From contig JACKFJ010000005.1 in NCBI GenBank assembly GCA_020632535.1, forward strand, positions 64,200 to 128,199: DNA of 64,000 nt, in the 5' to 3' direction. The position numbers and the translations under genes were made by a program. Under the pieces are notes generated by a model. That model was given only the letters and a program-made list of their open reading frames with translations, was not told the origin of the DNA and did not search any database. Of the stretch, positions 23,219 through 51,406 are shown piece by piece (the first letter of the stretch is position 1; the number at the start of each line of letters is the position of its first letter). This DNA comes from Candidatus Omnitrophota bacterium (GTDB lineage: Bacteria > Omnitrophota > Gorgyraeia > Zapsychrales > JANLHA01).

Positions 23219-23220
23219 AT

Positions 23221-23267
23221 TTGGTTGCGGGGACAGGATTTGAACCTGTGACCTTCAGGTTATGAGC
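23221..23267 (-). repeat. Distal att site of the island: duplicated 3' 46 nt of tRNA-fMet (+1 nt)
   Basis: TTGGTTGCGGGGACAGGATTTGAACCTGTGACCTTCAGGTTATGAGC is identical to 51329-51375. Confidence 0.9.
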
Positions 23268-37161: not shown

Positions 37162-37197
37162 ATGACTCCCTTTTATTGTTTATCTCTTCTATTTCAA

Positions 37198-37225
37198 AGA
37201 ATACCACATTCTTTCAAGAAGTCAA
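37198..37225 (-). promoter_or_regulatory. Sigma70-like promoter for the small-gene cluster
   Basis: Minus strand reads TTGACT-16 nt-TATTCT, ~37 nt upstream of the ATG at 37161. Confidence 0.4.
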
Positions 37226-37233
37226 CGGCATAA

Positions 37234-37247
37234 TTGTGCTTTTCAAA
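37234..37247 (-). promoter_or_regulatory. Conserved motif TTTGAAAAGCACAA, copy 3
   Basis: Exact 14-mer immediately after the RT-operon terminator and just upstream of the promoter at 37198-37225. Confidence 0.5.
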
Positions 37248-37256
37248 ATATATTTT

Positions 37257-37286
37257 TAAAAAGGGGTAGCCCGTCCCCGCTACCCC
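37257..37286 (-). terminator. Intrinsic terminator ending the RM-nuclease-RT array
   Basis: Minus strand: GGGGTAGC-GGGGACGG-GCTACCCC followed by TTTTTAAAAA. Confidence 0.7.
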
Positions 37287-37359
37287 ATGTCTTATTCCCA
37301 GTGTATTTGAGAATAAAACCATGCATGTGTGTGAGTTTGTTTGGACGGAGCATGATATA
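37287..37359 (-). ncRNA. Candidate RT-associated non-coding RNA / structured 3' tail
   Basis: 73 nt between the RT stop codon and the terminator. Contains the hairpin UUUAUUC-13 nt-GAAUAAG. CCGUCC, 12 nt after the stop codon, is complementary to GGACGG in the terminator loop. The position matches my recollection that DRT type 3 loci carry a ncRNA downstream of the RT pair. Confidence 0.25.
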
Positions 37360-39447
37360 TTAGTATACTTCTTGGCTTCTCTTAGCTTCAAGTTCTTTTC
37401 CAAAATCAAAATCAGACCACTTGGTGAACCAATATCCTTTTCTTGAAAGCAAATTGTTCTGCTGAGAAGCATCGGTTATGTCATAATAAACTAATAAATT
37501 TTTCTTAAACGCTTCATCTAAATATGGACAGGATAAAAGATCAAACAACAAAAAGACCAACTCAGTCGTAATTATCCTTTTATTTAAAGGAACTTTCTCA
37601 AATTTATGTGTAATATGCGTCTTTATAATTTCACGAATTTTATTGTATCTCGACTTACCTTCAATATAAAAAAGCAATACAGTTATTGTGAAATAATTCA
37701 AATCATAAAGGCATTTCTCTTCTTTAATATTTATATCGAAATACTTTCCTAATAGGAATTCTTCAAGTCTATACTCTCTCCCCAATTCTTTTAACGCAAT
37801 TAACAAATACAGCGTCTCAACTTGAGTATGCTTCGAACTTCTATTCTTCCGTAGGACCAAGAAGACATCATCATATATTTGTTTATATATCAAGTGCCGA
37901 AGATCGCTGTTAAAATTTCCTTTAATCCTAGTAAATTTTGTTAATTTACTCAGAATCATACAAAGCTTAATAGTTGTGTTTACCCTTGGAGAAACGCTAT
38001 AAAGAAAAAACGTGAAATCCAACAACTCCAAGATAGCCTTCGCCACTTTTAGTTCATATGCATTTTTATCTTCGATGCCAGCATATATTTTGATAATCTT
38101 TGCGACTTTTCTGTCAATGCAAGCAAGTGTATAATTTAAAATGTCTTTATAAGAAATTCCTGTCTCTTTAATTATCGTTTTAAACCTTGTTATCAGCTTA
38201 TTTGAACTCACATAAAAAGAGTATTCCCTATCACCCTCCTCCTCATCCCCCTCATCATCTTGCGGCATCTCCTTCTCTGATTCCTTCTTTAAAATTTTAA
38301 AGCTGAGATTATCATTTAGCAATTTCGCTATATTTTGCTTCGCGATTGTGATTCCAGTAATAATAGGCTTTTCAAATAAAACAGTTTTTGAGTCATTTAT
38401 GTATAATTTGTATTCCTTTAGCTGCAATCGATAGGTATCCAGTATTTTTTCTTTATCAGAATCTTCGTTATAAAAAACAAAAAAATCATCTACATACCGA
38501 AAAATCTCATAATGGGTTTTGAATTCCAAACCCTCTGCCTTAAGACAATTTAAAACGTTTAAATCTATCCTTTGCAAAATTAATTCTGCGAATATCCTGG
38601 AGAATTCTGGACCAATAACAATACCGTTAGTTTCAGCGTAATTTAAATTCTGCATCAAAGCATCAAATCGACCTGCAAATGTTTTATTTGACAATTTAAT
38701 ATTATCCTTAACCACATCCTTTGTTAATAAGGCCCAAGCAATCGTGTGAGAATAAATGCTGTCAAAACACTTTGATATATCAAATTTAAACATTCGATTA
38801 TATTTCTTCTCGCTCCTATGATATTTATAGGATTCATAAAATTTATACACATTACTAATATCTTTATAAGAAAAAAATGTTTTTAAGTTCTCATATTCTT
38901 TATCAAATTCTTCTGCCGACTTATGCTCATGGTCATGGGCCAAGTTTTTTAGATGAGTCCTATCTTGGAAATATGTGAATTTAGCGACTTTATGCGGCCT
39001 TCTTATAGAGAAAGGGCTAATATTACAGTAATAAAGAATTACTTCCTTGTACTTGTCGTAAAACTCAATTAACTGCAACTGACTTTTGGGGTGTACGATT
39101 ACTAATTCCCGATAATCCTTTTCTTTATGTGAAATCTTATAATTAAACGGAATGGTTTTGAATTCATCGTTATGTGCTTCGATTTTAATTTGCCGATTCC
39201 TAACTTCTTTACCCTGACAAAACCCAAATAGCAGTTTAATGATTACATCTAAAAACGGGTCATCTCTCTCCCATTTAATTATTTTTCCATCAACTGAAAT
39301 CTTGTTTGTTACTAAAAAATTATAAAAATGTCTATTTGAAAAAGTAGCGGGCAATTCAAATGGGAGAATATCCGACAAAACTACTTTTTCTTTTGAAATT
39401 TTAATTTGTTTCTTTTTACGTTTCAAACTAAGCCACCTTATTTCCAA
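37360..39447 (-). CDS. Reverse transcriptase, large (UG8/Drt3b-like): RT core + ~330-aa helical C-terminal domain
   Basis: 695-aa ORF (track start is TTG). A better start may be TTG 39426, preceded by AAGGTGG. RT motif A FDISKCFDSI, motif B NGIVIGPEFSRIFAEL, motif C FRYVDDFFVFY. N-terminus has LPFELPATFSNRHFY. Confidence 0.85.
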   Translation of the reverse strand: MEIRWLSLKRKKKQIKISKEKVVLSDILPFELPATFSNRHFYNFLVTNKISVDGKIIKWERDDPFLDVIIKLLFGFCQGKEVRNRQIKIEAHNDEFKTIPFNYKISHKEKDYRELVIVHPKSQLQLIEFYDKYKEVILYYCNISPFSIRRPHKVAKFTYFQDRTHLKNLAHDHEHKSAEEFDKEYENLKTFFSYKDISNVYKFYESYKYHRSEKKYNRMFKFDISKCFDSIYSHTIAWALLTKDVVKDNIKLSNKTFAGRFDALMQNLNYAETNGIVIGPEFSRIFAELILQRIDLNVLNCLKAEGLEFKTHYEIFRYVDDFFVFYNEDSDKEKILDTYRLQLKEYKLYINDSKTVLFEKPIITGITIAKQNIAKLLNDNLSFKILKKESEKEMPQDDEGDEEEGDREYSFYVSSNKLITRFKTIIKETGISYKDILNYTLACIDRKVAKIIKIYAGIEDKNAYELKVAKAILELLDFTFFLYSVSPRVNTTIKLCMILSKLTKFTRIKGNFNSDLRHLIYKQIYDDVFLVLRKNRSSKHTQVETLYLLIALKELGREYRLEEFLLGKYFDINIKEEKCLYDLNYFTITVLLFYIEGKSRYNKIREIIKTHITHKFEKVPLNKRIITTELVFLLFDLLSCPYLDEAFKKNLLVYYDITDASQQNNLLSRKGYWFTKWSDFDFGKELEAKRSQEVY

Positions 39448-40778
39448 ATCTTCATAATTTTCTGAAGCTCATGCGTCTTAAATGGAGAAAATCTTTTTGC
39501 ATTAAACCCTTCCAAAAACTTATATTTTCTCAACCTATCTCGCAATCGAACGTTCCTGAGAGTTTTGATCTTCTTTCTTAAATAACTATCAAGGTCAGCC
39601 AAATCATCCATTTCGGTTAACTGACGATTCGTATAAAAAATCCCAACAAGCACATTATTCTTATTATTCTTAAGACGAGTGTTGCCAGTTAAAAATCGCA
39701 CTCTTTTTACAAGCAAATCTCTTGCTTCTCTCGTATCAACCTTACTCAAATTAAAATAATTACTAAAAGCCGAATCAATTCTAGTTTTATATTTTAAAAC
39801 TTTCTTATCTGTTAATTTTGTTTTGATCTGGTTATCCCCAAAGAATATTTTGTAGCCTAGATATTCCATTTCACATGCTTGTTTAACACTACTTAAATCA
39901 AAGATTAGCGTTTTATTATTCGTGCCGCTATCATTTAGTTTTAAATGAAAGTCCTGCTCAACAATATTTTTTATCTCTAGCTTGTAATCTCCGACTCTCC
40001 CGCTGGCATACGGCGAAAATATGATAATAATATCATCAACATACCGCGCATAATACCTTACATCCGTGTGCGACAAAATAGCCTTATCAAGATCCCTCAT
40101 ATAAAGCTCAGCTAAATAAGCGCTAACGCCAATCCCTCGCGGAACCCCTTTATCGCAAGAAGCCAATTTCTTATATTGGGCCAATATTTGCCTCAAAATT
40201 CTTCGAGAAAATGGACTCAAAAGATTATTACCATCAATCTTTTCCAACAATTTCCCATGAGGAATACTCTCATAAAAATCATCAATATCTGTTTTTAAAA
40301 CAACCTTCGGAAAATCATCATCCAATAATGCTTTGACCTGACTTACGATTTCAAAACGATTTGATTGCTTAACACCAAACAGCCGGGATACATTTCTTTG
40401 TATTTGCTTCATAACAAAATAACACTCCGGCGAATTCCTAACTGTATAAAGAGATTTTTGACCTTCTAAATCTTTTTTGTCCAATTCCAAACTAAAACTT
40501 GCGGCCCCAACATTTTGGCTAACTTTCTTAAGCTCCTCGTTCAAAACTTCATCTTTTTTAGTTTTAAGTTCCCGCCTTTTTTCATACATTTTCTTCAAGT
40601 CATCACTTGAACAATTTTTGCTCTTTTTCTTCGCCCTAATTTCCTTATTGCATTGCTTCACTTCTTCTGTAGCATCCTTAACATTTGGAAAAAATAGGCC
40701 TTCCAAGAAAACACCTTTTCTATTTTCTAAATCTAATATTTTTCTAAAATTTTCCGCTGAAAATGATTGATCTAACAT
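39438..40778 (-). CDS. Reverse transcriptase, small (UG3/Drt3a-like)
   Basis: 446-aa ORF. Motif A TDIDDFYESIPH, motif B GVPRGIGVSAYLAELY, motif C YARYVDDIIIIFS. …RFLTGNTRL… in the C-terminal part. Confidence 0.85.
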   Translation of the reverse strand: MLDQSFSAENFRKILDLENRKGVFLEGLFFPNVKDATEEVKQCNKEIRAKKKSKNCSSDDLKKMYEKRRELKTKKDEVLNEELKKVSQNVGAASFSLELDKKDLEGQKSLYTVRNSPECYFVMKQIQRNVSRLFGVKQSNRFEIVSQVKALLDDDFPKVVLKTDIDDFYESIPHGKLLEKIDGNNLLSPFSRRILRQILAQYKKLASCDKGVPRGIGVSAYLAELYMRDLDKAILSHTDVRYYARYVDDIIIIFSPYASGRVGDYKLEIKNIVEQDFHLKLNDSGTNNKTLIFDLSSVKQACEMEYLGYKIFFGDNQIKTKLTDKKVLKYKTRIDSAFSNYFNLSKVDTREARDLLVKRVRFLTGNTRLKNNKNNVLVGIFYTNRQLTEMDDLADLDSYLRKKIKTLRNVRLRDRLRKYKFLEGFNAKRFSPFKTHELQKIMKIWK

Positions 40779-40780
40779 AA

Positions 40781-42265
40781 TTATTCCACAGCTAATTTTT
40801 CCAAAGCATTTAACAAATCTATCATTCCATAAGTATCTAAATCACAATACTCCTGCAATTGCGAATACACCCGTTGTCGCTCCTCTTCTTGTGCATCGCA
40901 ATAAGTAACCCTAAAGTATTCTAAACTCGCCACATCGCCTTGGGAAATATCCAAAGCTTCATAATTCTTTCCAGTTAAGATCGGAAGAACTGCTTTAATA
41001 GATGCACTTCCCTGTTGAGCGGGATGATAATAATCTAAATTTCTAAATGGCTCGTATAAGTCAACAAAACTAGGTTTTATATCTTTGAACCAATCCAAAT
41101 AATTCGACAGTGTTTCGCAAACTCCTTCTAGGACACTAATTTCAAAAGCTGCATTATATGCAACAATCGAACCAGGTGTTCCCAACTCACTGCTTAATTG
41201 TTTAATAAAATCTGTTCGAGGATCACTTTTCTCTCTCCACAAGAATGAAAAATGTTGCGGCGACGAATTTCGGCTCAAAACAACAAACATTGAATATTGA
41301 AACGGAATCCTTTCATACGGTCGAGATAAATCAAATAACGGGACCGCTGAAGAAATCGTTTCAAAATCCAAAAAATAAAGCGGATATTTTAATGTTTGGA
41401 GAAATTCTCTTAACGCCACACGATTTATGTAAGGAGTCCCCGTTTTATGTATCTTCAATTGCTTTCTTTGAGAATCAGTCAATTCGGCGTCATCTGGAAT
41501 ATCCAACAACCTCAACAATCCCTTCTTCATGAAATTAAATGCTATTTTCTTTCCCCGCATTAAAACAAAAATATTATCCTTCGTCGGAAGAAATGCCCAA
41601 CAAGCTTCCTTTAAGGGACATTCATAAGGTGAATCACATTGGGGTCCAATATTAATATCTGGAAGGGAGCCTTGGATAACTTGCAACATATTTTCAATTC
41701 TTTTAGGTAATAATGGAATCAAATCTTTTATTAAATCTGTAATATCAACTTTTAGGAAAAGCGCTTCAGGATCTATTTCTCCTTGTCTAATATACTCATT
41801 ATTGATGTGATAAAGATAGCAGCGCCTAATCTTTAGGCCCGCGCCCTCGTAAACATATTTTTGAAATGCCACATCTTCGTAATGTTCTTCCTTCACCTGA
41901 GTTGAACTTTTCACCTCAATCAAATCCCACTCATCGTGTCCAACGGGATTTAAAATATCTGCTAAAGCATAAGTATTAGAAAAAACAAACCCTGCTTCAA
42001 ATATTGGCCTTCTATCTTTCAACACCTCTGTTGATTTCTTTGAATGTTCAAACGGAGAAGCGTCTCTTTCAAGTTTAATTCCATCGGGAAATAGCCTCTG
42101 TGCCAACAACCCAATCTGGATACCTTGTCTGAAAATCGCCTGGGTAGCAACATCTATTGGTGGGATTTCTTCTTTACGATTATAAGCAAACCAGAGTAAT
42201 TTAGAGCATTGTACGCCCTGCATATATCTACTTTTTGTTAAAATCGGTTTAAATTTACTTTCCAT
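40781..42265 (-). CDS. DUF2779 protein: Cas4/RecB-like PD-(D/E)xK nuclease with Cys cluster + C-terminal DUF2779 domain
   Basis: Track start 42277 is TTG; I prefer ATG 42265. N-terminus is LTKSRYMQGVQCSKLLWF. Nuclease motif is WDLIEVKSST. Cys cluster is CDSPYECPLKEAC. DUF2779 signature is YFLDFETISSAVP…RPYERIPFQYSMFV. Confidence 0.75.
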   Translation of the reverse strand: MESKFKPILTKSRYMQGVQCSKLLWFAYNRKEEIPPIDVATQAIFRQGIQIGLLAQRLFPDGIKLERDASPFEHSKKSTEVLKDRRPIFEAGFVFSNTYALADILNPVGHDEWDLIEVKSSTQVKEEHYEDVAFQKYVYEGAGLKIRRCYLYHINNEYIRQGEIDPEALFLKVDITDLIKDLIPLLPKRIENMLQVIQGSLPDINIGPQCDSPYECPLKEACWAFLPTKDNIFVLMRGKKIAFNFMKKGLLRLLDIPDDAELTDSQRKQLKIHKTGTPYINRVALREFLQTLKYPLYFLDFETISSAVPLFDLSRPYERIPFQYSMFVVLSRNSSPQHFSFLWREKSDPRTDFIKQLSSELGTPGSIVAYNAAFEISVLEGVCETLSNYLDWFKDIKPSFVDLYEPFRNLDYYHPAQQGSASIKAVLPILTGKNYEALDISQGDVASLEYFRVTYCDAQEEERQRVYSQLQEYCDLDTYGMIDLLNALEKLAVE

Positions 42266-42267
42266 AA

Positions 42268-43671
42268 TTACAGCCAAACATCATCCAGGGACCTTGCTTT
42301 TAATATCTTATCCAAAGATGCATATTTCGGCCCCTGGGGTTTTAGATGCGGTCTGGCGCCCAGACCAACCGGAGTTTTTAATTTAATGGGATCACCTTTG
42401 AGATAGAGCTTATATTTATTCTCACCCCATTCCTTTCCTTCGTAGGGCTCAATGCGGTCCACTTCGCCGTAATACGTAATTTGCGAAACTGGCGCAACCT
42501 GATACATAGCCAAATACTTTATGAAAGGAATCGTGTTAGGATTTAACCGAACAGCCCACCACGCCTTTTGCTCCAGGAATGCAATCTTAAAGCCGTCCTC
42601 TTTCGCCGCACAAACCAAGGTATCCCAATCAGGCTTTGCAATTTTCTTCTTGCCACTTGGAAGTGACGCCAAGTCCAAATCAAGAATGCGATCCCCTGCC
42701 CCTGGAATTTCAAATTGCTCCTCTATATTAAAATCCTTCTTTCTCCTAATGTTAAATCGCGACTTATATTCATCTGACAGTTCATCGAAATGACGCAATA
42801 TCAATGTTGAAAGATCATTCCCATCAATTAATTTAATGTGAAGCTTTCCTTTTGCTTCAGCCTCTTCGATGGCTTGTGACGTAAAACCGGAAGTTGTGAT
42901 AAAACAACCATGCTCACCCTGCCCCAATGCCCCACGTAAAGCCAGAATATCTTTATTCCCTATAGAAGAACGGACACGTTTGACCTGAACTCTCAAGGTT
43001 ATGTCGGCAAGCCCTTCAGCATCGAGGACACCATTTACATCAATCCCTTTATCGCTAACATATTGTGTCGTTTCTGATGAGAAACCTACGACTTCCAACA
43101 CGTGACGGATGAACTGCTCAAATTCACGGCCATCCATTTCCAGAAGACCTTCCAATATGACATCACGGACACGCTGAGGCTTCTCTGCTGGCGTATACTT
43201 ATCTCCTTGTATTAACGCATTAATTTCATCTGAATATTTATCTAAAGAAAAGACTGTTAAAAGGCCCCCCAGAGAATACCCCAAACTCGTTGACATATCC
43301 TCCTTCAGAAGCACTTTATTCATCCATTTTACTTTTCGACGATGAGGATACGGACATCCCACCCTTGAGGTCTTCTGAAAATAATAATCACCTGCTTCAC
43401 CGGCGATGTACTCTCCTTTACCCAGCGGTGACAAAATAATATCACCGGGCTGGATTTCTAATCCAAACCGATAGACCTGTCCGGCATTAATAGCTAATTG
43501 CGTAGGGGTATAATTATACGAAGTCTCTTGGAGGGCTTTCTTGATTTGGCCGACATTCTTAAATTTGCTTAAATCGTCAACCTCCTCCCAGCCGATAGCC
43601 ACGAATCCTTCTTTCCGCGCCTCATCGATATACTTCGAACCTTCCCCAACTCGGATTAAATAGAATGACAT
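42268..43671 (-). CDS. Three-domain Mrr-family (type IV-like) restriction endonuclease
   Basis: 467-aa ORF. The central Mrr_cat region is REFEQFIRHVLEVVGF…DKGIDVNGVL…ITLRVQVKR…GCFITTSGFTSQA. It is flanked by an uncharacterised N-terminal domain (MSFYLIRVGEGSKYIDEARKEGFVAIGWEEV) and an uncharacterised C-terminal domain. Confidence 0.8.
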   Translation of the reverse strand: MSFYLIRVGEGSKYIDEARKEGFVAIGWEEVDDLSKFKNVGQIKKALQETSYNYTPTQLAINAGQVYRFGLEIQPGDIILSPLGKGEYIAGEAGDYYFQKTSRVGCPYPHRRKVKWMNKVLLKEDMSTSLGYSLGGLLTVFSLDKYSDEINALIQGDKYTPAEKPQRVRDVILEGLLEMDGREFEQFIRHVLEVVGFSSETTQYVSDKGIDVNGVLDAEGLADITLRVQVKRVRSSIGNKDILALRGALGQGEHGCFITTSGFTSQAIEEAEAKGKLHIKLIDGNDLSTLILRHFDELSDEYKSRFNIRRKKDFNIEEQFEIPGAGDRILDLDLASLPSGKKKIAKPDWDTLVCAAKEDGFKIAFLEQKAWWAVRLNPNTIPFIKYLAMYQVAPVSQITYYGEVDRIEPYEGKEWGENKYKLYLKGDPIKLKTPVGLGARPHLKPQGPKYASLDKILKARSLDDVWL

Positions 43672-45410
43672 AATCTTTTATCCCAATCCCAATATTTAAT
43701 TCTCTTTATGGCATCTTCGACATCAAACAATGTATATTTGTTTGGTTTCCATTCTGAAAGCTTTTTGTAAATGTCTTCCACTTCAATCGACTCTTCATCT
43801 TGAATAACCTTGCAAATACTGGCAATAAGCTCAATCTTATCACTGCCTAACTTACCAATCCGCATCAATAAATCTTCCATTGATTTTTGGCTGTTTATTA
43901 AAATATCTGAACTGTATTTCAGTAATCGTTCAGAATTTGGTCCAAGATCATAAACCTGTTTACCTTTTACTTGTATAGCCCTGAAAGCTTTATCTTTTCT
44001 TAGATCACTTTGAATAACTCGCTTTATTTTGGAATCATATGGACCAAAGTTTTGTTTTACAAAATTCAGACCAAAGGGAACCTTATAAATTTCCTGCAAA
44101 AAATAAAGCATTTTCGCAATAACCATTTCTCCACGCTGGTATGGTGTCGCGCGCAAACCTTCTAAAACGGCTCCAATCCCTAGCTTTAAATTAAACCAAA
44201 AATTTTTATTAGTTTGAGTAATCGGAACCGTTTCTTCCTGCTTAGAAAAATCAAACGCCTCCTGCAAGACAGCTTGTATAATACTTTCTACTTTATTTTG
44301 CGCAGATAAAATTTGTCCTTCTAACTCCTGACTTTTCTCAATCGCAGTATTAACTCTTTCGATCAACATCTTCTGATCTTTCAATGAAACCATTGGAATT
44401 TCTACGCCCATCACTATTCTTTGATTAATTTTTGGCATACTCCCAGACGTACCAGAAGCGTTCTCACGGAAATAATTGCGTATCTTTTCTGACATAAGCA
44501 TAATATGTAAGAATTCGGGGATTACTCCTTCCTTAGGATGAATTTTCATCATTAAATCGGGATATATAAATTCGTGTGGCTCTCCTCTATAAACTGCACT
44601 TACACCCACGTAATCAAGAGAATTACTCCTTTGGATCAAAATATCGCCATCTTTTAACCATAAATAGGAAATGGGCTCCAAATTAACATCAACATATTTT
44701 ATACATTCCTTTTTAAAAACTCCTGAAGTTGTCGCCGTCAACGTTAGGGTCTTAATTTTAGTTTCATCACTAACAGGCTTAGGGGAGTAACCGTTTCTGG
44801 GCTTTTCAACAATAAGCTCATCCAACTTCTTAATTTGTCCATTTTTACATGCCTGACTATATGCTTCACTAAATATTGAGCGCTTCAGGTGAGAAAGGTT
44901 TTTTACAATTTTTCTGTTCAAATCGCCAAACATTTTTGTTCTTTCAAAAGCAAAATCAATCCTATCAGCAATCTTTTTTTGATCTTTTAATGAGTCGTGG
45001 ATATTGATTTCTAAAGGAAGAAAATGTTTCGGTTTTATTTCTGTTTTTATTCCTCCCCTGACTTGTTCTTTTACGGCTTCTTTAAATGCTTCACTTTTAA
45101 TGAGCCATTTAAAATAAGGAATATAAATTTTGCTTGGATCAAAGTGATAAGCTGAATAATGAATAGTCGCCAAACACTCTTCTTCCCCATCATGAACAGC
45201 TACGGCACCTTTTGAAAAATTAATACCAGAAATGACCAGATCACCTTTTTTAAAACTAATCATATTCGTTTTTGTCGTTCTTCCTAGACTAAAGTGCATC
45301 TCTCCATTGAAGTCAATTTTATCCAACCGACTTAACTTTAAGGCGTTCGCGTCCTTCGGCTTGATACGCCCTTCTCGCTCTTTTAGAAATTGTGAAATTC
45401 TGGTTTTCAT
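43656..45410 (-). CDS. hsdS: Type I R-M specificity subunit HsdS with an extra ~190-aa C-terminal DUF4065/SocA ('Panacea')-like domain
   Basis: 584-aa ORF. Two TRD/conserved-region halves (…NGYSPKP…LIQRSNSLDYVG…SGSMPKINQ…), then …EMVIAKMLYFLQEIYKVPFGLNFVKQNFGPYDSKI… (KLLY…F…GP pattern). ATGA overlap with hsdM and a 16-nt overlap with the Mrr gene. Confidence 0.8.
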   Translation of the reverse strand: MKTRISQFLKEREGRIKPKDANALKLSRLDKIDFNGEMHFSLGRTTKTNMISFKKGDLVISGINFSKGAVAVHDGEEECLATIHYSAYHFDPSKIYIPYFKWLIKSEAFKEAVKEQVRGGIKTEIKPKHFLPLEINIHDSLKDQKKIADRIDFAFERTKMFGDLNRKIVKNLSHLKRSIFSEAYSQACKNGQIKKLDELIVEKPRNGYSPKPVSDETKIKTLTLTATTSGVFKKECIKYVDVNLEPISYLWLKDGDILIQRSNSLDYVGVSAVYRGEPHEFIYPDLMMKIHPKEGVIPEFLHIMLMSEKIRNYFRENASGTSGSMPKINQRIVMGVEIPMVSLKDQKMLIERVNTAIEKSQELEGQILSAQNKVESIIQAVLQEAFDFSKQEETVPITQTNKNFWFNLKLGIGAVLEGLRATPYQRGEMVIAKMLYFLQEIYKVPFGLNFVKQNFGPYDSKIKRVIQSDLRKDKAFRAIQVKGKQVYDLGPNSERLLKYSSDILINSQKSMEDLLMRIGKLGSDKIELIASICKVIQDEESIEVEDIYKKLSEWKPNKYTLFDVEDAIKRIKYWDWDKRLCHSI

Positions 45411-46846
45411 TTTAATAACGTTTTCTCTATCTCAGCTAATAACCTTGTCGATTCCTTTAAGTCTTCTGTTACTTCTTCAATTATTTCATGAGTTGAATAC
45501 TGTTTCTTGCTTTGTAAAGCATTCGGATTTCGCAAGTCCAAATTAAAACCATTATCTGCGATTTCTTTAATACTGACTTTCCAAGCAAACTCATTTTCTT
45601 TGCGATTTTTCCACCATCGTTTTTCTAATTCAAATTCGGAATATCTAATCGGTTTCGTTTTTGTATAAACCTTGCCTTTACGTTCTTCCGGAAGTGGGTG
45701 CTCAAAAAACCAAATGGACTTCGTTGCTTCACCTTTAGTTAAAAATATTAAATTGGTCTCTATATCCGTATAAGGAGAGAAAACACCTCTCGGAAGACGG
45801 ATAATTGTATGCAGATTACATTCATTTAGTATTTTTTCTTTAATTCTTGTTTTAACCCCATCACCGGATAAAGAACCATCTGGTAAAATCAAAGCACATC
45901 TTCCTTGATTTTTTAATAACTGTACTATCAAGACTAAAAATAAATCGGCAGTTTCGCGAGTTCGAAAAGAAGATGGAAAATTATTAGGAATACCGACTTC
46001 TTCCTCTCCCCCAAATGGCGGATTGGTTACGATCACATCAACACGATCTTTCTGGGTGTAATTTCTTAACGGACTGGAGAGAAGGTTGTCTCGTCGGATG
46101 TTGTTAGGAATTTCAATACCATGCAAGATCATATTGGTGATCGCCAAAAGGTGGGGCAAAGGTTTCTTCTCGACGCCGAATATGTTGTCCTGCCATTTGG
46201 TACGGTCTTTGATGCTTTTTTCTTGCTTCTTAAGATGTTCAATGGCGCATGTTAAAAATCCACCAGTCCCGCAAGCGGGGTCTAAAATCTTTTCGCCAAG
46301 TTTGGGATTGACCATTTCGACCATGAATTGTGTGACGGGTCGAGGTGTGTAATATTCCCCTGCATTGCCTGCGCTTTGCAGGTCTTTAAGGATAGACTCG
46401 TAAAGATCATTAAAAATATGCCGATCCTCGGCTTTGTTGAAATCGAATTCCTGATTGATTTTATTGATGACCTGCCGAAGAAGAGTCCCTGACTTCATGT
46501 AGTTGTAGGTATCTTCGAAAACAGACTGGATCAAATATTCTCTGGGGCTTTCCTTAGGATTGACATTGAGCTCCTTCAGCATCTTGAAAAGCTTATTGTT
46601 TACGAAATCTAAAAGCTCTTCGCCTGTGATGCCTTCTTCATCCAACGCCCAATTTCGCCAGCGAAGCTCTTCGGGTAAAGGCGATTTATATTTTTGATCC
46701 ATCAATTCGTATTCCCGTTCCTTGTCATCAAAAATCTTCAGAAATACCAGCCAAACAAGCTGTGAAATACGCTGAGCGTCGCCATCGACACCTGTATCCT
46801 TACGCATAATGTCCTGAACTGTTTTAATTGTTGCTGGGGAAACCAT
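45407..46846 (-). CDS. hsdM: Type I R-M N6-adenine DNA methyltransferase HsdM
   Basis: 479-aa ORF. Motif I ILDPACGTGGFL, motif IV TNPPFGG, HsdM N-terminal helical domain. Confidence 0.9.
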   Translation of the reverse strand: MVSPATIKTVQDIMRKDTGVDGDAQRISQLVWLVFLKIFDDKEREYELMDQKYKSPLPEELRWRNWALDEEGITGEELLDFVNNKLFKMLKELNVNPKESPREYLIQSVFEDTYNYMKSGTLLRQVINKINQEFDFNKAEDRHIFNDLYESILKDLQSAGNAGEYYTPRPVTQFMVEMVNPKLGEKILDPACGTGGFLTCAIEHLKKQEKSIKDRTKWQDNIFGVEKKPLPHLLAITNMILHGIEIPNNIRRDNLLSSPLRNYTQKDRVDVIVTNPPFGGEEEVGIPNNFPSSFRTRETADLFLVLIVQLLKNQGRCALILPDGSLSGDGVKTRIKEKILNECNLHTIIRLPRGVFSPYTDIETNLIFLTKGEATKSIWFFEHPLPEERKGKVYTKTKPIRYSEFELEKRWWKNRKENEFAWKVSIKEIADNGFNLDLRNPNALQSKKQYSTHEIIEEVTEDLKESTRLLAEIEKTLLK

Positions 46847-46848
46847 TC

Positions 46849-49236
46849 CTATACCTTACTTTCTATTTGATAAATTTCCTTTTCTAATTCCTTCAACGCT
46901 TCGAGATATTGATCCCGACCGCCGAAGAAGTTAACAATTTCAATCGGCGAACCGAATTGCGGAAACGGCTGAACGTTGAGAATTTCAAGCTCTTCCAGAT
47001 TCTCAATTCCTTCGTCGGCATATTTTTCAAGAAGCATGTCAATTACAGTTCTGGCTTTGTCTCCATACTTCGTAAAATAATTCCGCTTTTTAACGTTCTC
47101 CGCTCTTTCCCGACGAGTTAAAGCGGGCTGTTCAAACGCAATATGACAGACAATATCAAAAGGGTCTAAATCCTGCCCTATCTCTTCACACAGATCATCA
47201 AAAAAGATACCCTGTTTTTCCAACTGATCGATAATCGCATATTTCTTTTCCGCATGACTCCACAGTTGGAGGAATTCATCTATTGAAGAAAATTCTTTAA
47301 GCAGTGTCTTTTTTGTGTAGTCCTTTAGAGATTCTGTAATCAATTTGCCATCATGGCCATAATATTGCACCCGCTCATGAATCACAGTGACGGGGACATC
47401 ACCCACAACATACTTGCGTGGCTTCGGGTCTCCATCCCCTCCGCCTGTGGGATCAATAGGATCGACGATAACAGTTTCACCTCCATTTTCGCCACCTTCA
47501 TCCGGCGGTTCTGGTTCGACAATCACATCATCAGGAGGTGCAATCGGATCATCGCCTTTAGGTTCATAAATCATCACCGGATCACCGTCAAAATCTGGAT
47601 CGGCGAATAAATTAGTTGCCTGCCGAAAATCCATAATCGTAAAATAATATTTATCAAAATCGGTTCGTATACGTGTACCCCGTCCGATGATCTGTTTAAA
47701 TTCAGTCATAGAGTTGATATTCTTATCCAAAACAACCAATTTACACGTTTGAGCATCCACGCCTGTAGACATAAGTTTCGAAGTAGTCGCGATGACAGGA
47801 TAGGGACTTTCTGGATCGATAAAATTATCCAACTCTTTCTTACCCAAATCATGATCGCCCGTGATCCTCATTACGTACTTATGATTCTTTTGAACAAGAT
47901 CCGCATTTTCATTGGCTATTGCCTGACGCATCCCTTCGGCATGGTCGATGTCCACGCAAAAGACAATGGTTTTATCGAAACGGTTTGTCTTGGTCAAATA
48001 CTCTGACACCTTCTTGGCTACGACTTCCCGGCGGCGTTTCAATATTAATTCCCGATCATAATCTTTACTGTTGTATATCCGATCTGGGACTTCAAAACCG
48101 TTGTCATCGACCTTCCCTTCCTCTGGTCGCCAACCCAAATCACGGTCAATGGCTACACGGACCACTTTATATGGAGCCAAAAAGCCGTCTTCGATTCCCT
48201 GTTTCAAAGAATATGTGTAAATCGGTTCGCCGAAATAATTAATATTGGAAACGTATTTTGTTTCTTTGGGCGTTGCTGTCATGCCGATTTGGGTTGCGGA
48301 AAAAAAATACTTCAAAATTTCATGCCAGATGGAATCTTCTTTGGCACTTCCTCTGTGACATTCATCCACCACGATAAGGTCAAAGAAGTCGGGAGAAAAT
48401 TCTTTATAAATATTTTTGATCTCTTCATTACCTGTGACGCCCTGATAAAGAGCCAAGTATATTTCATAAGATTTATCTACCTGACGGTTTCGGATCTTCG
48501 TCATTTTATCGCCGAAATGCTTAAAGTCATTGGTCATGGTCTGATCGACCAAAACATTGCGGTCTGCCAAGAACAAAATACGCTTTTTCTTTCGTGCTTT
48601 CCATAGACGCCAGATGATCTGTGATGCCACAAATGTCTTGCCTGTTCCTGTTGCCATGACAAGAAGAATACGGTCTTGACCTCGGGCAATGGCTTCTGTT
48701 GTTCGATTGATCGCAATCTGCTGATAATAGCGGGGAGACTTTCCACCCTGATCGTAATAATAATCATTCAGGACGACTTCTTCTTGGGATGGCGCTTTAA
48801 TACCCTTAAAAATTTTGTATTTCTGCCAGAGTTCATCCGGGGAGGGAAATCCCTCCAAAGAGAGCTCTTCCTCAATCTGCCCTTCTTTGACCGTTCGATC
48901 ATGTTTCAGAAATCCATCGCCGTTTGAACTAAAGACAAACGGAATATCGAGAATGTCGGCATAATCGAGGGCTTGTTGCATCCCGTCACCAACCGAATGA
49001 TTATTATCTTTGGCTTCGATGATAGCTATCGGAATGTTGGCCTTATAGTAAAGGATATAATCGGCTCGTTTGGGCTGGGCTCGGGTGATCTTCTTGCCTC
49101 GGACATGAATCCGACCATCGGTAAAGCTGACTTCTTCCCGAATCTGCTTTTGAATATCCCATCCTGAACCGACAAGGGCAGGGGTGATAAATTTAGTACA
49201 AATATCTCTCTCGGAAAATTCTTTTTTATTAATCAT
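46849..49236 (-). CDS. hsdR: Type I R-M restriction/translocase subunit HsdR (with EcoEI-R C-terminal-type domain)
   Basis: 795-aa ORF. N-terminal nuclease region (…ADYILYY…IIEAK…), helicase motifs MATGTGKT and VVDECHR, and a C-terminal …FDIVCHIAFEQPALTRRERA… domain. Confidence 0.9.
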   Translation of the reverse strand: MINKKEFSERDICTKFITPALVGSGWDIQKQIREEVSFTDGRIHVRGKKITRAQPKRADYILYYKANIPIAIIEAKDNNHSVGDGMQQALDYADILDIPFVFSSNGDGFLKHDRTVKEGQIEEELSLEGFPSPDELWQKYKIFKGIKAPSQEEVVLNDYYYDQGGKSPRYYQQIAINRTTEAIARGQDRILLVMATGTGKTFVASQIIWRLWKARKKKRILFLADRNVLVDQTMTNDFKHFGDKMTKIRNRQVDKSYEIYLALYQGVTGNEEIKNIYKEFSPDFFDLIVVDECHRGSAKEDSIWHEILKYFFSATQIGMTATPKETKYVSNINYFGEPIYTYSLKQGIEDGFLAPYKVVRVAIDRDLGWRPEEGKVDDNGFEVPDRIYNSKDYDRELILKRRREVVAKKVSEYLTKTNRFDKTIVFCVDIDHAEGMRQAIANENADLVQKNHKYVMRITGDHDLGKKELDNFIDPESPYPVIATTSKLMSTGVDAQTCKLVVLDKNINSMTEFKQIIGRGTRIRTDFDKYYFTIMDFRQATNLFADPDFDGDPVMIYEPKGDDPIAPPDDVIVEPEPPDEGGENGGETVIVDPIDPTGGGDGDPKPRKYVVGDVPVTVIHERVQYYGHDGKLITESLKDYTKKTLLKEFSSIDEFLQLWSHAEKKYAIIDQLEKQGIFFDDLCEEIGQDLDPFDIVCHIAFEQPALTRRERAENVKKRNYFTKYGDKARTVIDMLLEKYADEGIENLEELEILNVQPFPQFGSPIEIVNFFGGRDQYLEALKELEKEIYQIESKV

Positions 49237-50125: not shown

Positions 50126-51208
50126 TTATTCTTCCTCCTTAACCATTTCAACCAATTCATCTTCTTGATCTGCTCCTCTGAGCCTTCCCCACAAGTACCC
50201 AAGACGATAACTCATCCCCTCACTCATGAGATGCCAGTTTGTGCCCGCTAAAGTCTTCTTTATAAGCCTCCGAAGCTTACGAACACTATCGTTTTCTTTT
50301 CTCGAGGAATCGGCATCCTGAACGCTAAAGGGGATAATAAAATGTCTGCTTATTTCCGGCTTCTCGAAGGATAGCTTAACGTATTTCTCTTTCTTTAAGG
50401 ATTTAGAAAGAACCCTCTCGAGTTGAACCGTTGTAAGTTTCTCCAACTGGGCTGCTTTTTTATAAACAGGGTTCGTTTCTCTCTGCTCTATCCGGTCAAG
50501 CAGCTCAGATAATCTTTTCACACGATTATAGCCTTCAATATATTCAAAGCCTTCTTTCTCGGATAAACAAAATTCAGCCCTATGCTTTTTCAACAATGCC
50601 TTCTCCTGTCGCTCTCGTTTATTATTCTCAACTTTTTTCTTATCTAAATCAACGACCTCGGTCTCCAGAAACCCACAGAAAGAACATCTCGTCGTCCATG
50701 TTTCAATATGATTTTTCTCAGCATACGAAATCTTAATTTCCTTATTACACTTCGGGCAACAATGTGGCTTTGGGACATAAAACTGCCCGTCTTCCCAGAC
50801 ACCCTTTTTCTTTTTGCATGAAGGGCATTCGAATGTAAAAAGAACTCGAAGAGGCTCATCTGAGTTATACAGCATTTTATAAATGCTTTGCATTAGTGCA
50901 GCGCAATTGGAGCAATGGACATCCTTAGGCTCCTGGGCAGCGTCTAATTTCTCATCCAGCCGACGATCTCGCTCAATCCACTCATTTATCATAGAGCGTC
51001 TTCGGCGATAATTCTCGCCCTTAATAAAGTAAAGTTCTGATTTTAAACCGAAAGAAGCAGCCTGAGCTTGTGTCAGACCCTTAGGAAGGTCTTTTCTCTT
51101 CTGCTCACATAATATTCGCTTCCAGTTTTCAATAACTCGAAGGCATTCCTGGATGGTTAACAGATCATAAAGATCCTGATAATAAGCTTCTTCTTTCAGA
51201 TATTTCAT
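50126..51208 (-). CDS. Hypothetical protein with two zinc-ribbon-like CxxC pairs, first gene inside the tRNA-proximal island end
   Basis: 360-aa ORF with CSNC…CPSC and CPKC…CSFC. No family recognised. Confidence 0.45.
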   Translation of the reverse strand: MKYLKEEAYYQDLYDLLTIQECLRVIENWKRILCEQKRKDLPKGLTQAQAASFGLKSELYFIKGENYRRRRSMINEWIERDRRLDEKLDAAQEPKDVHCSNCAALMQSIYKMLYNSDEPLRVLFTFECPSCKKKKGVWEDGQFYVPKPHCCPKCNKEIKISYAEKNHIETWTTRCSFCGFLETEVVDLDKKKVENNKRERQEKALLKKHRAEFCLSEKEGFEYIEGYNRVKRLSELLDRIEQRETNPVYKKAAQLEKLTTVQLERVLSKSLKKEKYVKLSFEKPEISRHFIIPFSVQDADSSRKENDSVRKLRRLIKKTLAGTNWHLMSEGMSYRLGYLWGRLRGADQEDELVEMVKEEE

Positions 51209-51324: not shown

Positions 51325-51329
51325 TAAGT

Positions 51330-51406
<77 letters not shown>

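Follow-up and report, generated by a model that had tools for sequence, protein, structure and literature searches.

A type I specificity subunit with a predicted DarG-like C-terminal domain and its Mrr-family neighbor in a gene array of Candidatus Omnitrophota

Introduction

The specificity subunit (HsdS) of textbook type I restriction-modification (R-M) enzymes is usually seen as a pure DNA-recognition scaffold. The EcoprrI type I R-M enzyme masks an embedded PrrC anticodon nuclease and is a conceptual precedent for an effector that is kept latent by such a complex. Here, we analyzed an HsdS protein with an additional C-terminal domain (the tail), together with the Mrr-family nuclease gene that overlaps its 3′ end. 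Both lie in a 64,000-nt stretch of DNA from Candidatus Omnitrophota bacterium (contig JACKFJ010000005.1, positions 64,200–128,199), hereafter the window. The initial annotation of this locus proposed that the tail is a DUF4065 (Panacea) antitoxin domain that neutralizes the Mrr-like nuclease. Our analysis favors, with a probability of about 0.6, a type I R-M system carried on an integrated element, in which a member of a tail-bearing HsdS subfamily holds the tail inside the R-M complex and the Mrr-like protein is an autonomous neighbor.

The closest described relatives of the tail come from toxin-antitoxin systems. The toxin DarT is sequestered by DarG's C-terminal domain (PMC7003065), and the structure 7YK3 shows this domain of Mycobacterium tuberculosis DarG in complex with DarT. 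Proteins of the DUF4065 family (SocA/Panacea, PF13274) share homology with the DarG C-terminal domain (PMC13621843), and Panacea domains pair with many unrelated toxins (bioRxiv 10.1101/2021.05.07.442387). Type I loci are hotspots for embedded defense genes (PMC12255303), and DarTG itself is often found in operons of type I R-M systems, in the position between hsdS and hsdR (PMC5179494, PMC12255303). A shared origin or a shared interface may lie behind this placement and the DarG-like tail of HsdS.

Compared with DarG (DarTG2, 7YK3), the tail is alike in sequence and in predicted fold, namely that of the DarT-binding C-terminal domain, and the conserved K..LY...F..GPY core is common to both, at ~20% sequence identity. 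In contrast to DarG, the tail is not preceded by a macrodomain (ADP-ribosyl glycohydrolase) and is fused to HsdS instead, none of the seven array genes matched DarT (DUF4433) in Pfam or PADLOC, and the HsdS tails are basic. The SocA/Panacea proteins belong to the same superfamily by transitive evidence (sub-threshold matches, standalone relatives, and the published homology to DarG), and the variable genes found after the tail are reminiscent of the partner promiscuity of Panacea. However, the window tail is part of an R-M subunit, as its C-terminal domain, and not a small antitoxin, it lacks a PF13274 match, and in half of the tail loci HsdR is the only candidate toxin. The closest standalone relatives are YwgA-type proteins (phmmer E 1e-7 to 1e-5, profile E about 1e-45), which, unlike the HsdS tail, are acidic to neutral proteins of ~185 aa without R-M context. 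The likeness to EcoprrI-PrrC lies in nuclease genes that are embedded between R-M genes in three tail loci (L039, L041, and L042), whereas a PrrC homologue is absent here and the Mrr-like gene is located after the R-M genes, not inside them. Finally, the Mrr-like protein shares with MspJI, AspBHI, and Mrr-type enzymes the combination of a PUA-like reader domain and a PD-(D/E)xK nuclease, but differs by an additional C-terminal beta-rich domain and by an N-terminal domain of the DUF8426 family.

HsdS consists of a two-domain recognition core and an additional tail

The hsdS open reading frame (ORF; 43656–45410, minus strand) encodes 584 aa. Its core (residues 1 to ~390; 44241–45410, minus strand) comprises two target-recognition domains (TRDs) and the conserved helices. 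The PADLOC model Specificity_I matched residues 99–387 with an E-value of 4.3e-54, and 60 or more further models matched within residues 39–390. These models run out at their own C-termini near residue 390 (PDLC03100 at model position 388 of 392, PDLC03107 at 386 of 392), and therefore ~190–195 C-terminal residues are extra. This agrees with the initial annotation, which had noted ~190 residues beyond a two-TRD subunit. NCBIfam PRK09737 matched residues 37–386 (E 3.5e-24), below its equivalog cut-off. The match to PF01420 that had been expected for the core was not obtained with the window HsdS, although the PADLOC and NCBIfam models of HsdS matched it; homologues of this HsdS do match PF01420.

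The two genes directly upstream of hsdS encode the other subunits. The hsdM gene (45407–46846, minus strand; 479 aa) encodes a type I methyltransferase (Pfam N6_Mtase, E 1.5e-73, and HsdM_N, E 2.3e-13; PADLOC MTase_I, E 4.5e-209) and overlaps hsdS by 4 nt. It is separated by a gap of 2 nt from hsdR (46849–49236, minus strand; 795 aa), whose product matched Pfam ResIII (E 1.4e-43), EcoEI_R_C (E 3.5e-36), and HSDR_N, as well as PADLOC REase_I (1184 bits), and thus has an EcoEI_R_C-type C-terminus. The three genes make up a complete type I R-M system in the order hsdR-hsdM-hsdS, and by its family matches and position the window HsdS is assigned as the type I specificity subunit with a two-TRD core.

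The tail is predicted to adopt the fold of the DarG C-terminal domain

The tail (residues ~391–584; 43656–44240, minus strand) contains a folded domain at residues ~400–580 (nt 43671–44213). No match of the window tail to PF13274 was found even at E≤10, and no other Pfam family matched it at this level. Searches with the single tail sequence against PHROGs and the PDB gave nothing significant. Among 48 tail-family members, 12 matched PF13274 below its gathering score of 25.7 bits (best E 3.5e-4, 21.9 bits), and sub-threshold matches to any other Pfam family were seen in at most 3 of the 48. The tail also matched positions 175–329 of the 338-position NCBIfam model NF048014 (antitoxin_DarG) with an E-value of 1.8e-10; the match is confined to the C-terminal part of the model, and its score was 39–41 bits against a cut-off of 250. 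When the tail-family profile was compared with PDB sequences, 7yk3_B was matched with E 1.2e-8 (all members, alignment A1) and E 1.8e-4 (fusion tails only, alignment A2).

The AlphaFold2 model of the tail alone was of high confidence (predicted local distance difference test score 94.6, predicted template modeling score 0.89). In a Foldseek search of the PDB, 7yk3_B and 7yk3_D were its sole significant matches (E 3e-6, probability 1.00, template modeling score 0.67–0.71 over 188 columns). Nothing significant was found among viral predicted structures. The motif by which the initial annotation had recognized the tail, EMVIAKMLYFLQEIYKVPFGLNFVKQNFGPYD, is indeed found there. No other stretch of the tail family is as conserved: K46 and G69 do not vary at all, and G40, F63, and P70 are conserved to at least 90%. 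By profile and predicted fold, the tail is best described as a DarG C-terminal domain-like member of a broader Panacea/YwgA superfamily. Its kinship to YwgA and SocA/Panacea is more distant than that to the DarG C-terminal domain. The original DUF4065/Panacea call therefore holds at the superfamily level, through the homology and fold shared with DarG, but not at the level of PF13274 itself.

The fusion tails have a basic character, with medians of +9 for net charge and 9.5 for pI, whereas the standalone relatives are acidic to neutral (pI ~6). Because of this basic charge, a simple nucleic-acid mimicry by the tail, like that of the DarG C-terminal domain, is disfavored.

Tail-bearing HsdS proteins form a widespread subfamily

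A word-indexed protein search with the single tail returned only 2 proteins, and an exhaustive phmmer search was used instead. It yielded 184 clusters (at 50% identity) of tail relatives with E<1e-3. Among the 150 of these clusters that were listed, most proteins are of at least 500 aa and have the match at their C-terminal end. The fusion relatives are mostly HsdS proteins of 550–640 aa, and Methylase_S was found in all five of the long ones that were scanned. A second group consists of standalone proteins of ~175–195 aa, named YwgA and in a few cases SocA/Panacea in their source records; some of them carry PF13274 or have SocA family as their name. Apparent standalone copies of fusion-type tails proved to be fragments, as in P0066, which is cut by a contig end. 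At five loci (L044–L048; 3679–5570), the YwgA-type gene was observed directly after a gene for an HD + HD_assoc_2 phosphohydrolase (YwfO-like), with a 4-nt overlap, as a conserved two-gene unit.

Of eight tail loci from the genome collection, six are from metagenome-assembled genomes (MAGs) of Patescibacteria/CPR (candidate phyla radiation), one from a gammaproteobacterial MAG, and one from an Ignavibacteriae MAG. No match to the tail was found by tblastn in the plasmid and phage collections. In the searchable literature, we found no description of a fusion of HsdS with a DarG or Panacea domain, as the initial annotation had supposed; searches on YwgA and on DUF4065 with R-M likewise gave none. 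The tail-bearing HsdS subfamily is thus widespread and apparently undescribed. The subfamily is significant because all of it, in at least 184 clusters (50% identity), bears a well-folded domain that has been taken over from antitoxins.

The tail was also observed on half-size HsdS proteins with a single TRD (ORFs of 371–378 aa in L022, L025, L026, and L029). In L005/L031, L019, and L040, ORFs of 614–864 aa contain HsdM-like and HsdS-like parts together with the tail and are putative fusions. HsdS proteins of different architecture have therefore kept the domain. At locus L002, TRD2 (protein P0004) is highly similar to that of the window, whereas TRD1, hsdM, and hsdR are distant between the two loci. 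Conversely, P0003 (locus L055) has a tail near-identical to that of the window, with a TRD2 that is only ~20% identical. The retention of TRD2 in the one case and its replacement by an unrelated TRD2 in the other indicate that tail and TRDs reassort independently. A suggestive correlation was observed between the tail and HsdR of the EcoEI_R_C type: 23 of the 37 HsdR ORFs detected with jackhmmer were positive, a count that includes duplicates and several truncated HsdR proteins and that missed at least L002, whose HsdR is EcoEI_R_C-positive in precomputed Pfam annotation.

The genes that follow the tail are variable

The survey covered 40 distinct loci at which hsdS bears the tail and the sequence downstream of it was available. 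The gene next to the tail was hsdR in half of these loci (20/40; order hsdM-hsdS-hsdR) and an Mrr-like gene in only 2/40, namely in the window and in L002/L016. In 12/40 loci it was another nuclease or defense gene, and in the remaining 6/40 there was another gene or none, with no same-strand neighbor in three of them. The class of 12 loci includes GmrSD/HEC-05 and HEC-06 (five loci), a protein with a FokI cleavage domain, HARE-HTH+PDDEXK_5, T5orf172 (PDC-S57) followed by a KAP NTPase, Cas4+RNase_H_2, PDC-M36A, a UDG-family (uracil-DNA glycosylase) protein, and a DUF262-like protein, the last of these recognized by eye only. Only hsdM and hsdR are constant companions of the tail.

The tail of L002/L016 is 54% and its Mrr-like protein 68% identical to that of the window. 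The two Mrr-like loci are not independent, because L002 shares the backbone of the element in which the window genes are found. The tail closest to that of the window (P0003, 81% identical, and 82–92% over residues 401–560) is followed by DUF6978 and DUF1828 genes. At L008, the R and M subunits are the closest to those of the window (E 0 and 5e-205, respectively) and the S subunit bears the tail; only opposite-strand genes are located downstream.

In L039, L041, L042, and L010, an extra gene is located between hsdS-tail and hsdM. In L039 and L041 the order is hsdS-tail, a predicted membrane protein of 162 aa whose gene overlaps hsdS by 8 nt, GmrSD (HEC-06), and hsdM; the arrangement was also seen in L058. 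By its composition, the pair of the 162-aa ORF and GmrSD is a putative internal type IV module within the R-M operon.

The Mrr-like protein resembles modification-dependent restriction enzymes

The Mrr-family endonuclease gene (42268–43671, minus strand) encodes a protein of 467 aa. Homologues with the same initial Met support its start, as does the PADLOC model PDC-S02, whose alignment begins at residue 2. PDC-S02, which is a single-gene candidate in PADLOC, matched residues 2–309 (E 1.4e-79), and mREase_IV was matched with E 5e-14. The Mrr_cat domain (PF04471) was found at residues 177–291 over the full model length (E 2e-23). The N-terminal domain (residues 1–158) is PUA-like and is assigned to PF28530 (DUF8426) in precomputed annotation. 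The central Mrr-type nuclease flanked by two domains, as described in the initial annotation, was thus recovered, with DUF8426 before and a beta-rich domain after Mrr_cat. This C-terminal beta-rich domain (residues ~345–467; 42268–42639, minus strand) is conserved in the family and is without a sequence-family match. It may be a second reader domain.

The AlphaFold2 model of the protein consists of three domains joined by flexible linkers. Its best Foldseek matches were MspJI (E 7.4e-8) and AspBHI (E 2.8e-6), followed by ASCH and YTH reader domains (E about 2e-3). The family profile gave nothing significant against PDB sequences. The family comprises 172 proteins that are 47–74% identical over the full length and are named restriction endonuclease or Mrr-cat superfamily; the window protein is 100% identical to a database protein from a Candidatus Omnitrophica MAG. 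Because of the MspJI/AspBHI fold and the Mrr_cat, PDC-S02, and mREase_IV matches, the Mrr-like protein is probably a self-contained, Mrr-family enzyme of type IV-like character that restricts DNA autonomously and in a modification-dependent manner. The predicted architecture also indicates that it would be harmless to the host when the cognate modification is absent.

The genomic context of orthologues (60–64% identical) was variable as well. They were seen after a 688-aa N6_Mtase protein and an unannotated 465-aa ORF, after a Hypoth_Ymh gene, and, once, alone among housekeeping genes. No tail-like ORF was detected in any of these loci by six-frame hmmsearch.

The tail likely acts within the R-M complex

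According to the preferred reading, the tail would bind a partner or serve as a gate within the R-M complex, because only hsdM and hsdR always accompany it. A partner-binding role is favored since the relatives of the tail bind partner enzymes: the DarG C-terminal domain binds DarT, and Panacea domains bind diverse toxins. The genes of the YwgA-type relatives, too, adjoin that of an HD-domain protein, with a 4-nt overlap. Tentatively, the tail may bind HsdR and so control assembly or restriction; HsdR is preferred as ligand because it is the sole nuclease that is always present. Alternatively, given the consistently basic charge of the tails, the ligand could be DNA or an acidic protein, possibly a phage DNA mimic. 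Several observations weigh against this reading. We infer the partner of the tail from co-occurrence alone. The basic tails are unlike the nucleic-acid-mimicking inhibitor that would be expected from the DarG C-terminal domain, and the mechanism of the tail may differ from that of DarG. In 14 of the 20 loci in which hsdR is not next, the next gene is a nuclease or defense gene, often overlapping or within 10 nt, a proportion for which there is no tail-less control. These neighbors include Mrr, FokI-cleavage-domain, GmrSD, Cas4/RNase H-like, HARE-HTH-PDDEXK, and T5orf172 proteins, a diversity that fits promiscuous docking. Moreover, the TRD2-tail-Mrr block of L002 is far closer to that of the window than are its hsdR, hsdM, and TRD1, which hints at some linkage of the 3′ half of hsdS and mrr.

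In the model of the initial annotation, the Mrr-like nuclease has its cognate antitoxin in the tail; the R-M complex would keep the nuclease latent and free it when anti-restriction proteins attack or titrate HsdS. The tail is indeed homologous to a proven toxin-sequestering domain (PMC7003065), the hsdS-mrr pair recurs in L002/L016, and EcoprrI-PrrC is a precedent. The two genes also overlap by 16 nt (43656–43671, minus strand), as originally noted: the ORF coordinates and the junction sequence (...GATAAAAGATTATGTCATTCTATTTAA) agree, and the downstream ATG falls within the last hsdS codons. However, the junctions in the array hsdR-hsdM-hsdS-mrr-DUF2779-drt3a-drt3b are +2, −4, −16, −10, +2, and −10 nt. 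Since every junction is an overlap or a 2-nt gap, the 16-nt overlap is typical of the whole array, is no tighter than the other junctions, and does not mark a special pair. The survey also argues against this model, as the Mrr-like gene follows the tail in two loci with the same element backbone while hsdR follows it in 20, and the closest tail has other neighbors. Co-occurrence or co-variation of the tail and the Mrr-like protein, as in a type II toxin-antitoxin pair, was not found in the 40 tail loci or in the loci of the Mrr-like orthologues, one of which is solitary. In addition, the architecture of the nuclease is that of self-contained, modification-dependent enzymes, in line with its single-gene status in PADLOC. 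A role of the Mrr-like gene as a toxin neutralized by the tail is thus not supported by these comparisons and fails the comparative part of the refutation test that the initial annotation had itself proposed, and we consider this model highly improbable. The annotation is corrected accordingly: the Mrr-family neighbor is best regarded as a restriction enzyme in its own right, probably a modification-dependent one, and not as a toxin.

A broader variant, which we regard as unlikely, is that the tail is a hub that swaps partners as Panacea domains do and tethers or masks whichever nuclease is adjacent or embedded, so that a second-line effector is coupled to the integrity of the R-M complex. The 14 loci with a nuclease or defense gene next to the tail and the four loci with an extra gene between hsdS-tail and hsdM would fit such a hub, as would the many unrelated toxins of Panacea domains and the frequent insertion of DarTG between hsdS and hsdR. 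It is rather improbable that the hub would hold the adjacent nuclease latent and free it when phage anti-restriction proteins disable the complex, as a generalized, modular form of the EcoprrI-PrrC guard; if true, it could explain the position of DarTG between hsdS and hsdR. Against both forms, 20/40 loci contain only hsdM, hsdS-tail, and hsdR in order and three more have no same-strand neighbor, and therefore the tail is maintained without an accessory nuclease partner. Defense genes also cluster at type I loci generally (PMC12255303), and the binding of such unrelated folds by one domain (40–90% identity) would be a strong demand. The basic charge of the fusion tails compared with their standalone relatives could instead point to a nucleic-acid appendage, with a winged-helix-like first half, that contacts flanking DNA or RNA or autoregulates the operon. 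Low-ranked Foldseek matches of the tail were winged-helix regulators (PadR, MarR, F-93, and Sso10a), but these were non-significant (E>0.3), the tail matched no DNA-binding motif family in the Pfam and NCBIfam scans, and the characterized relatives all act by protein-protein binding (PMC7003065; bioRxiv 10.1101/2021.05.07.442387). This role is accordingly doubtful. The tail offers a handle on two questions: by what means type I enzymes are regulated or protected from anti-restriction, and for what reason DarTG and other effectors so often lie embedded beside hsdS.

The array is predicted to be cargo of an element integrated at tRNA-Met

The R-M and Mrr-like genes belong to an array of seven minus-strand genes. 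The Mrr-like gene is followed by a DUF2779 gene (40781–42277, minus strand; 498 aa; Pfam DUF2779, E 9.8e-35), whose product has a Cas4-like PD-(D/E)xK N-terminal part (PADLOC Cas4, E 1.9e-6, residues 22–228). The last two genes encode reverse transcriptases with RVT_1 domains (Pfam): Drt3a (39438–40778, minus strand; 446 aa; PADLOC E 9.5e-114) and Drt3b (37360–39447, minus strand; 695 aa; PADLOC E 1.2e-207). According to PADLOC and the ORF list, the adjacent Drt3a (UG3) and Drt3b (UG8) genes, which overlap by 10 nt, constitute a type 3 defense-associated reverse transcriptase (DRT) system. The region downstream of the DRT3 pair (37162–37359) holds, just 3′ of drt3b, a strong hairpin that is rich in G+C and followed by a T run (37286–37263, minus strand; 8 pairs, 6 of them G-C). 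No other terminator-like site of the minus strand is as strong; two weak matches of 5 pairs are located inside hsdM. The region may encode a non-coding RNA associated with DRT3 or may be a terminator only. The Mrr-like gene lies together with the R-M genes, DUF2779, and DRT3 and is probably co-transcribed with them. Such co-location is usual in defense islands.

The whole array lies within a ~28-kb segment flanked by direct repeats that are perfect over 47 bp. One att-like copy (51328–51374) overlaps the 3′ part of tRNA-Met (51330–51406, minus strand), and the other (23220–23266) marks the distal boundary of the element. Because of its position between these repeats, one of which is in the 3′ part of the tRNA gene, the array is assigned as predicted cargo of a mobile element integrated at tRNA-Met. 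Resolvase, DUF932, and MerR-type genes are also part of the element. Next to the tRNA, a gene for a protein of 360 aa (50126–51208) had no family match and may encode a divergent integrase.

The L002 element shares the backbone of the window element, namely the response regulator, bPH_2, resolvase, and DUF932 genes. After its Mrr-like gene (L002, 11294–15028), a QueC-like gene and a gene with a weak SMODS domain were observed among unannotated ORFs in place of DUF2779 and DRT3. This replacement suggests that the position after the Mrr-like gene is a hotspot of cargo swapping. DUF2779 or Cas4-like proteins with RNase H-like parts recur near tail-bearing type I systems: besides the window gene, a Cas4-like/RNase H-like gene was found directly 3′ of hsdS-tail in L038 (6534–8009), and a DUF2779/Cas4-like + RNase H-like gene two genes after hsdR in L009 (12291–13904).

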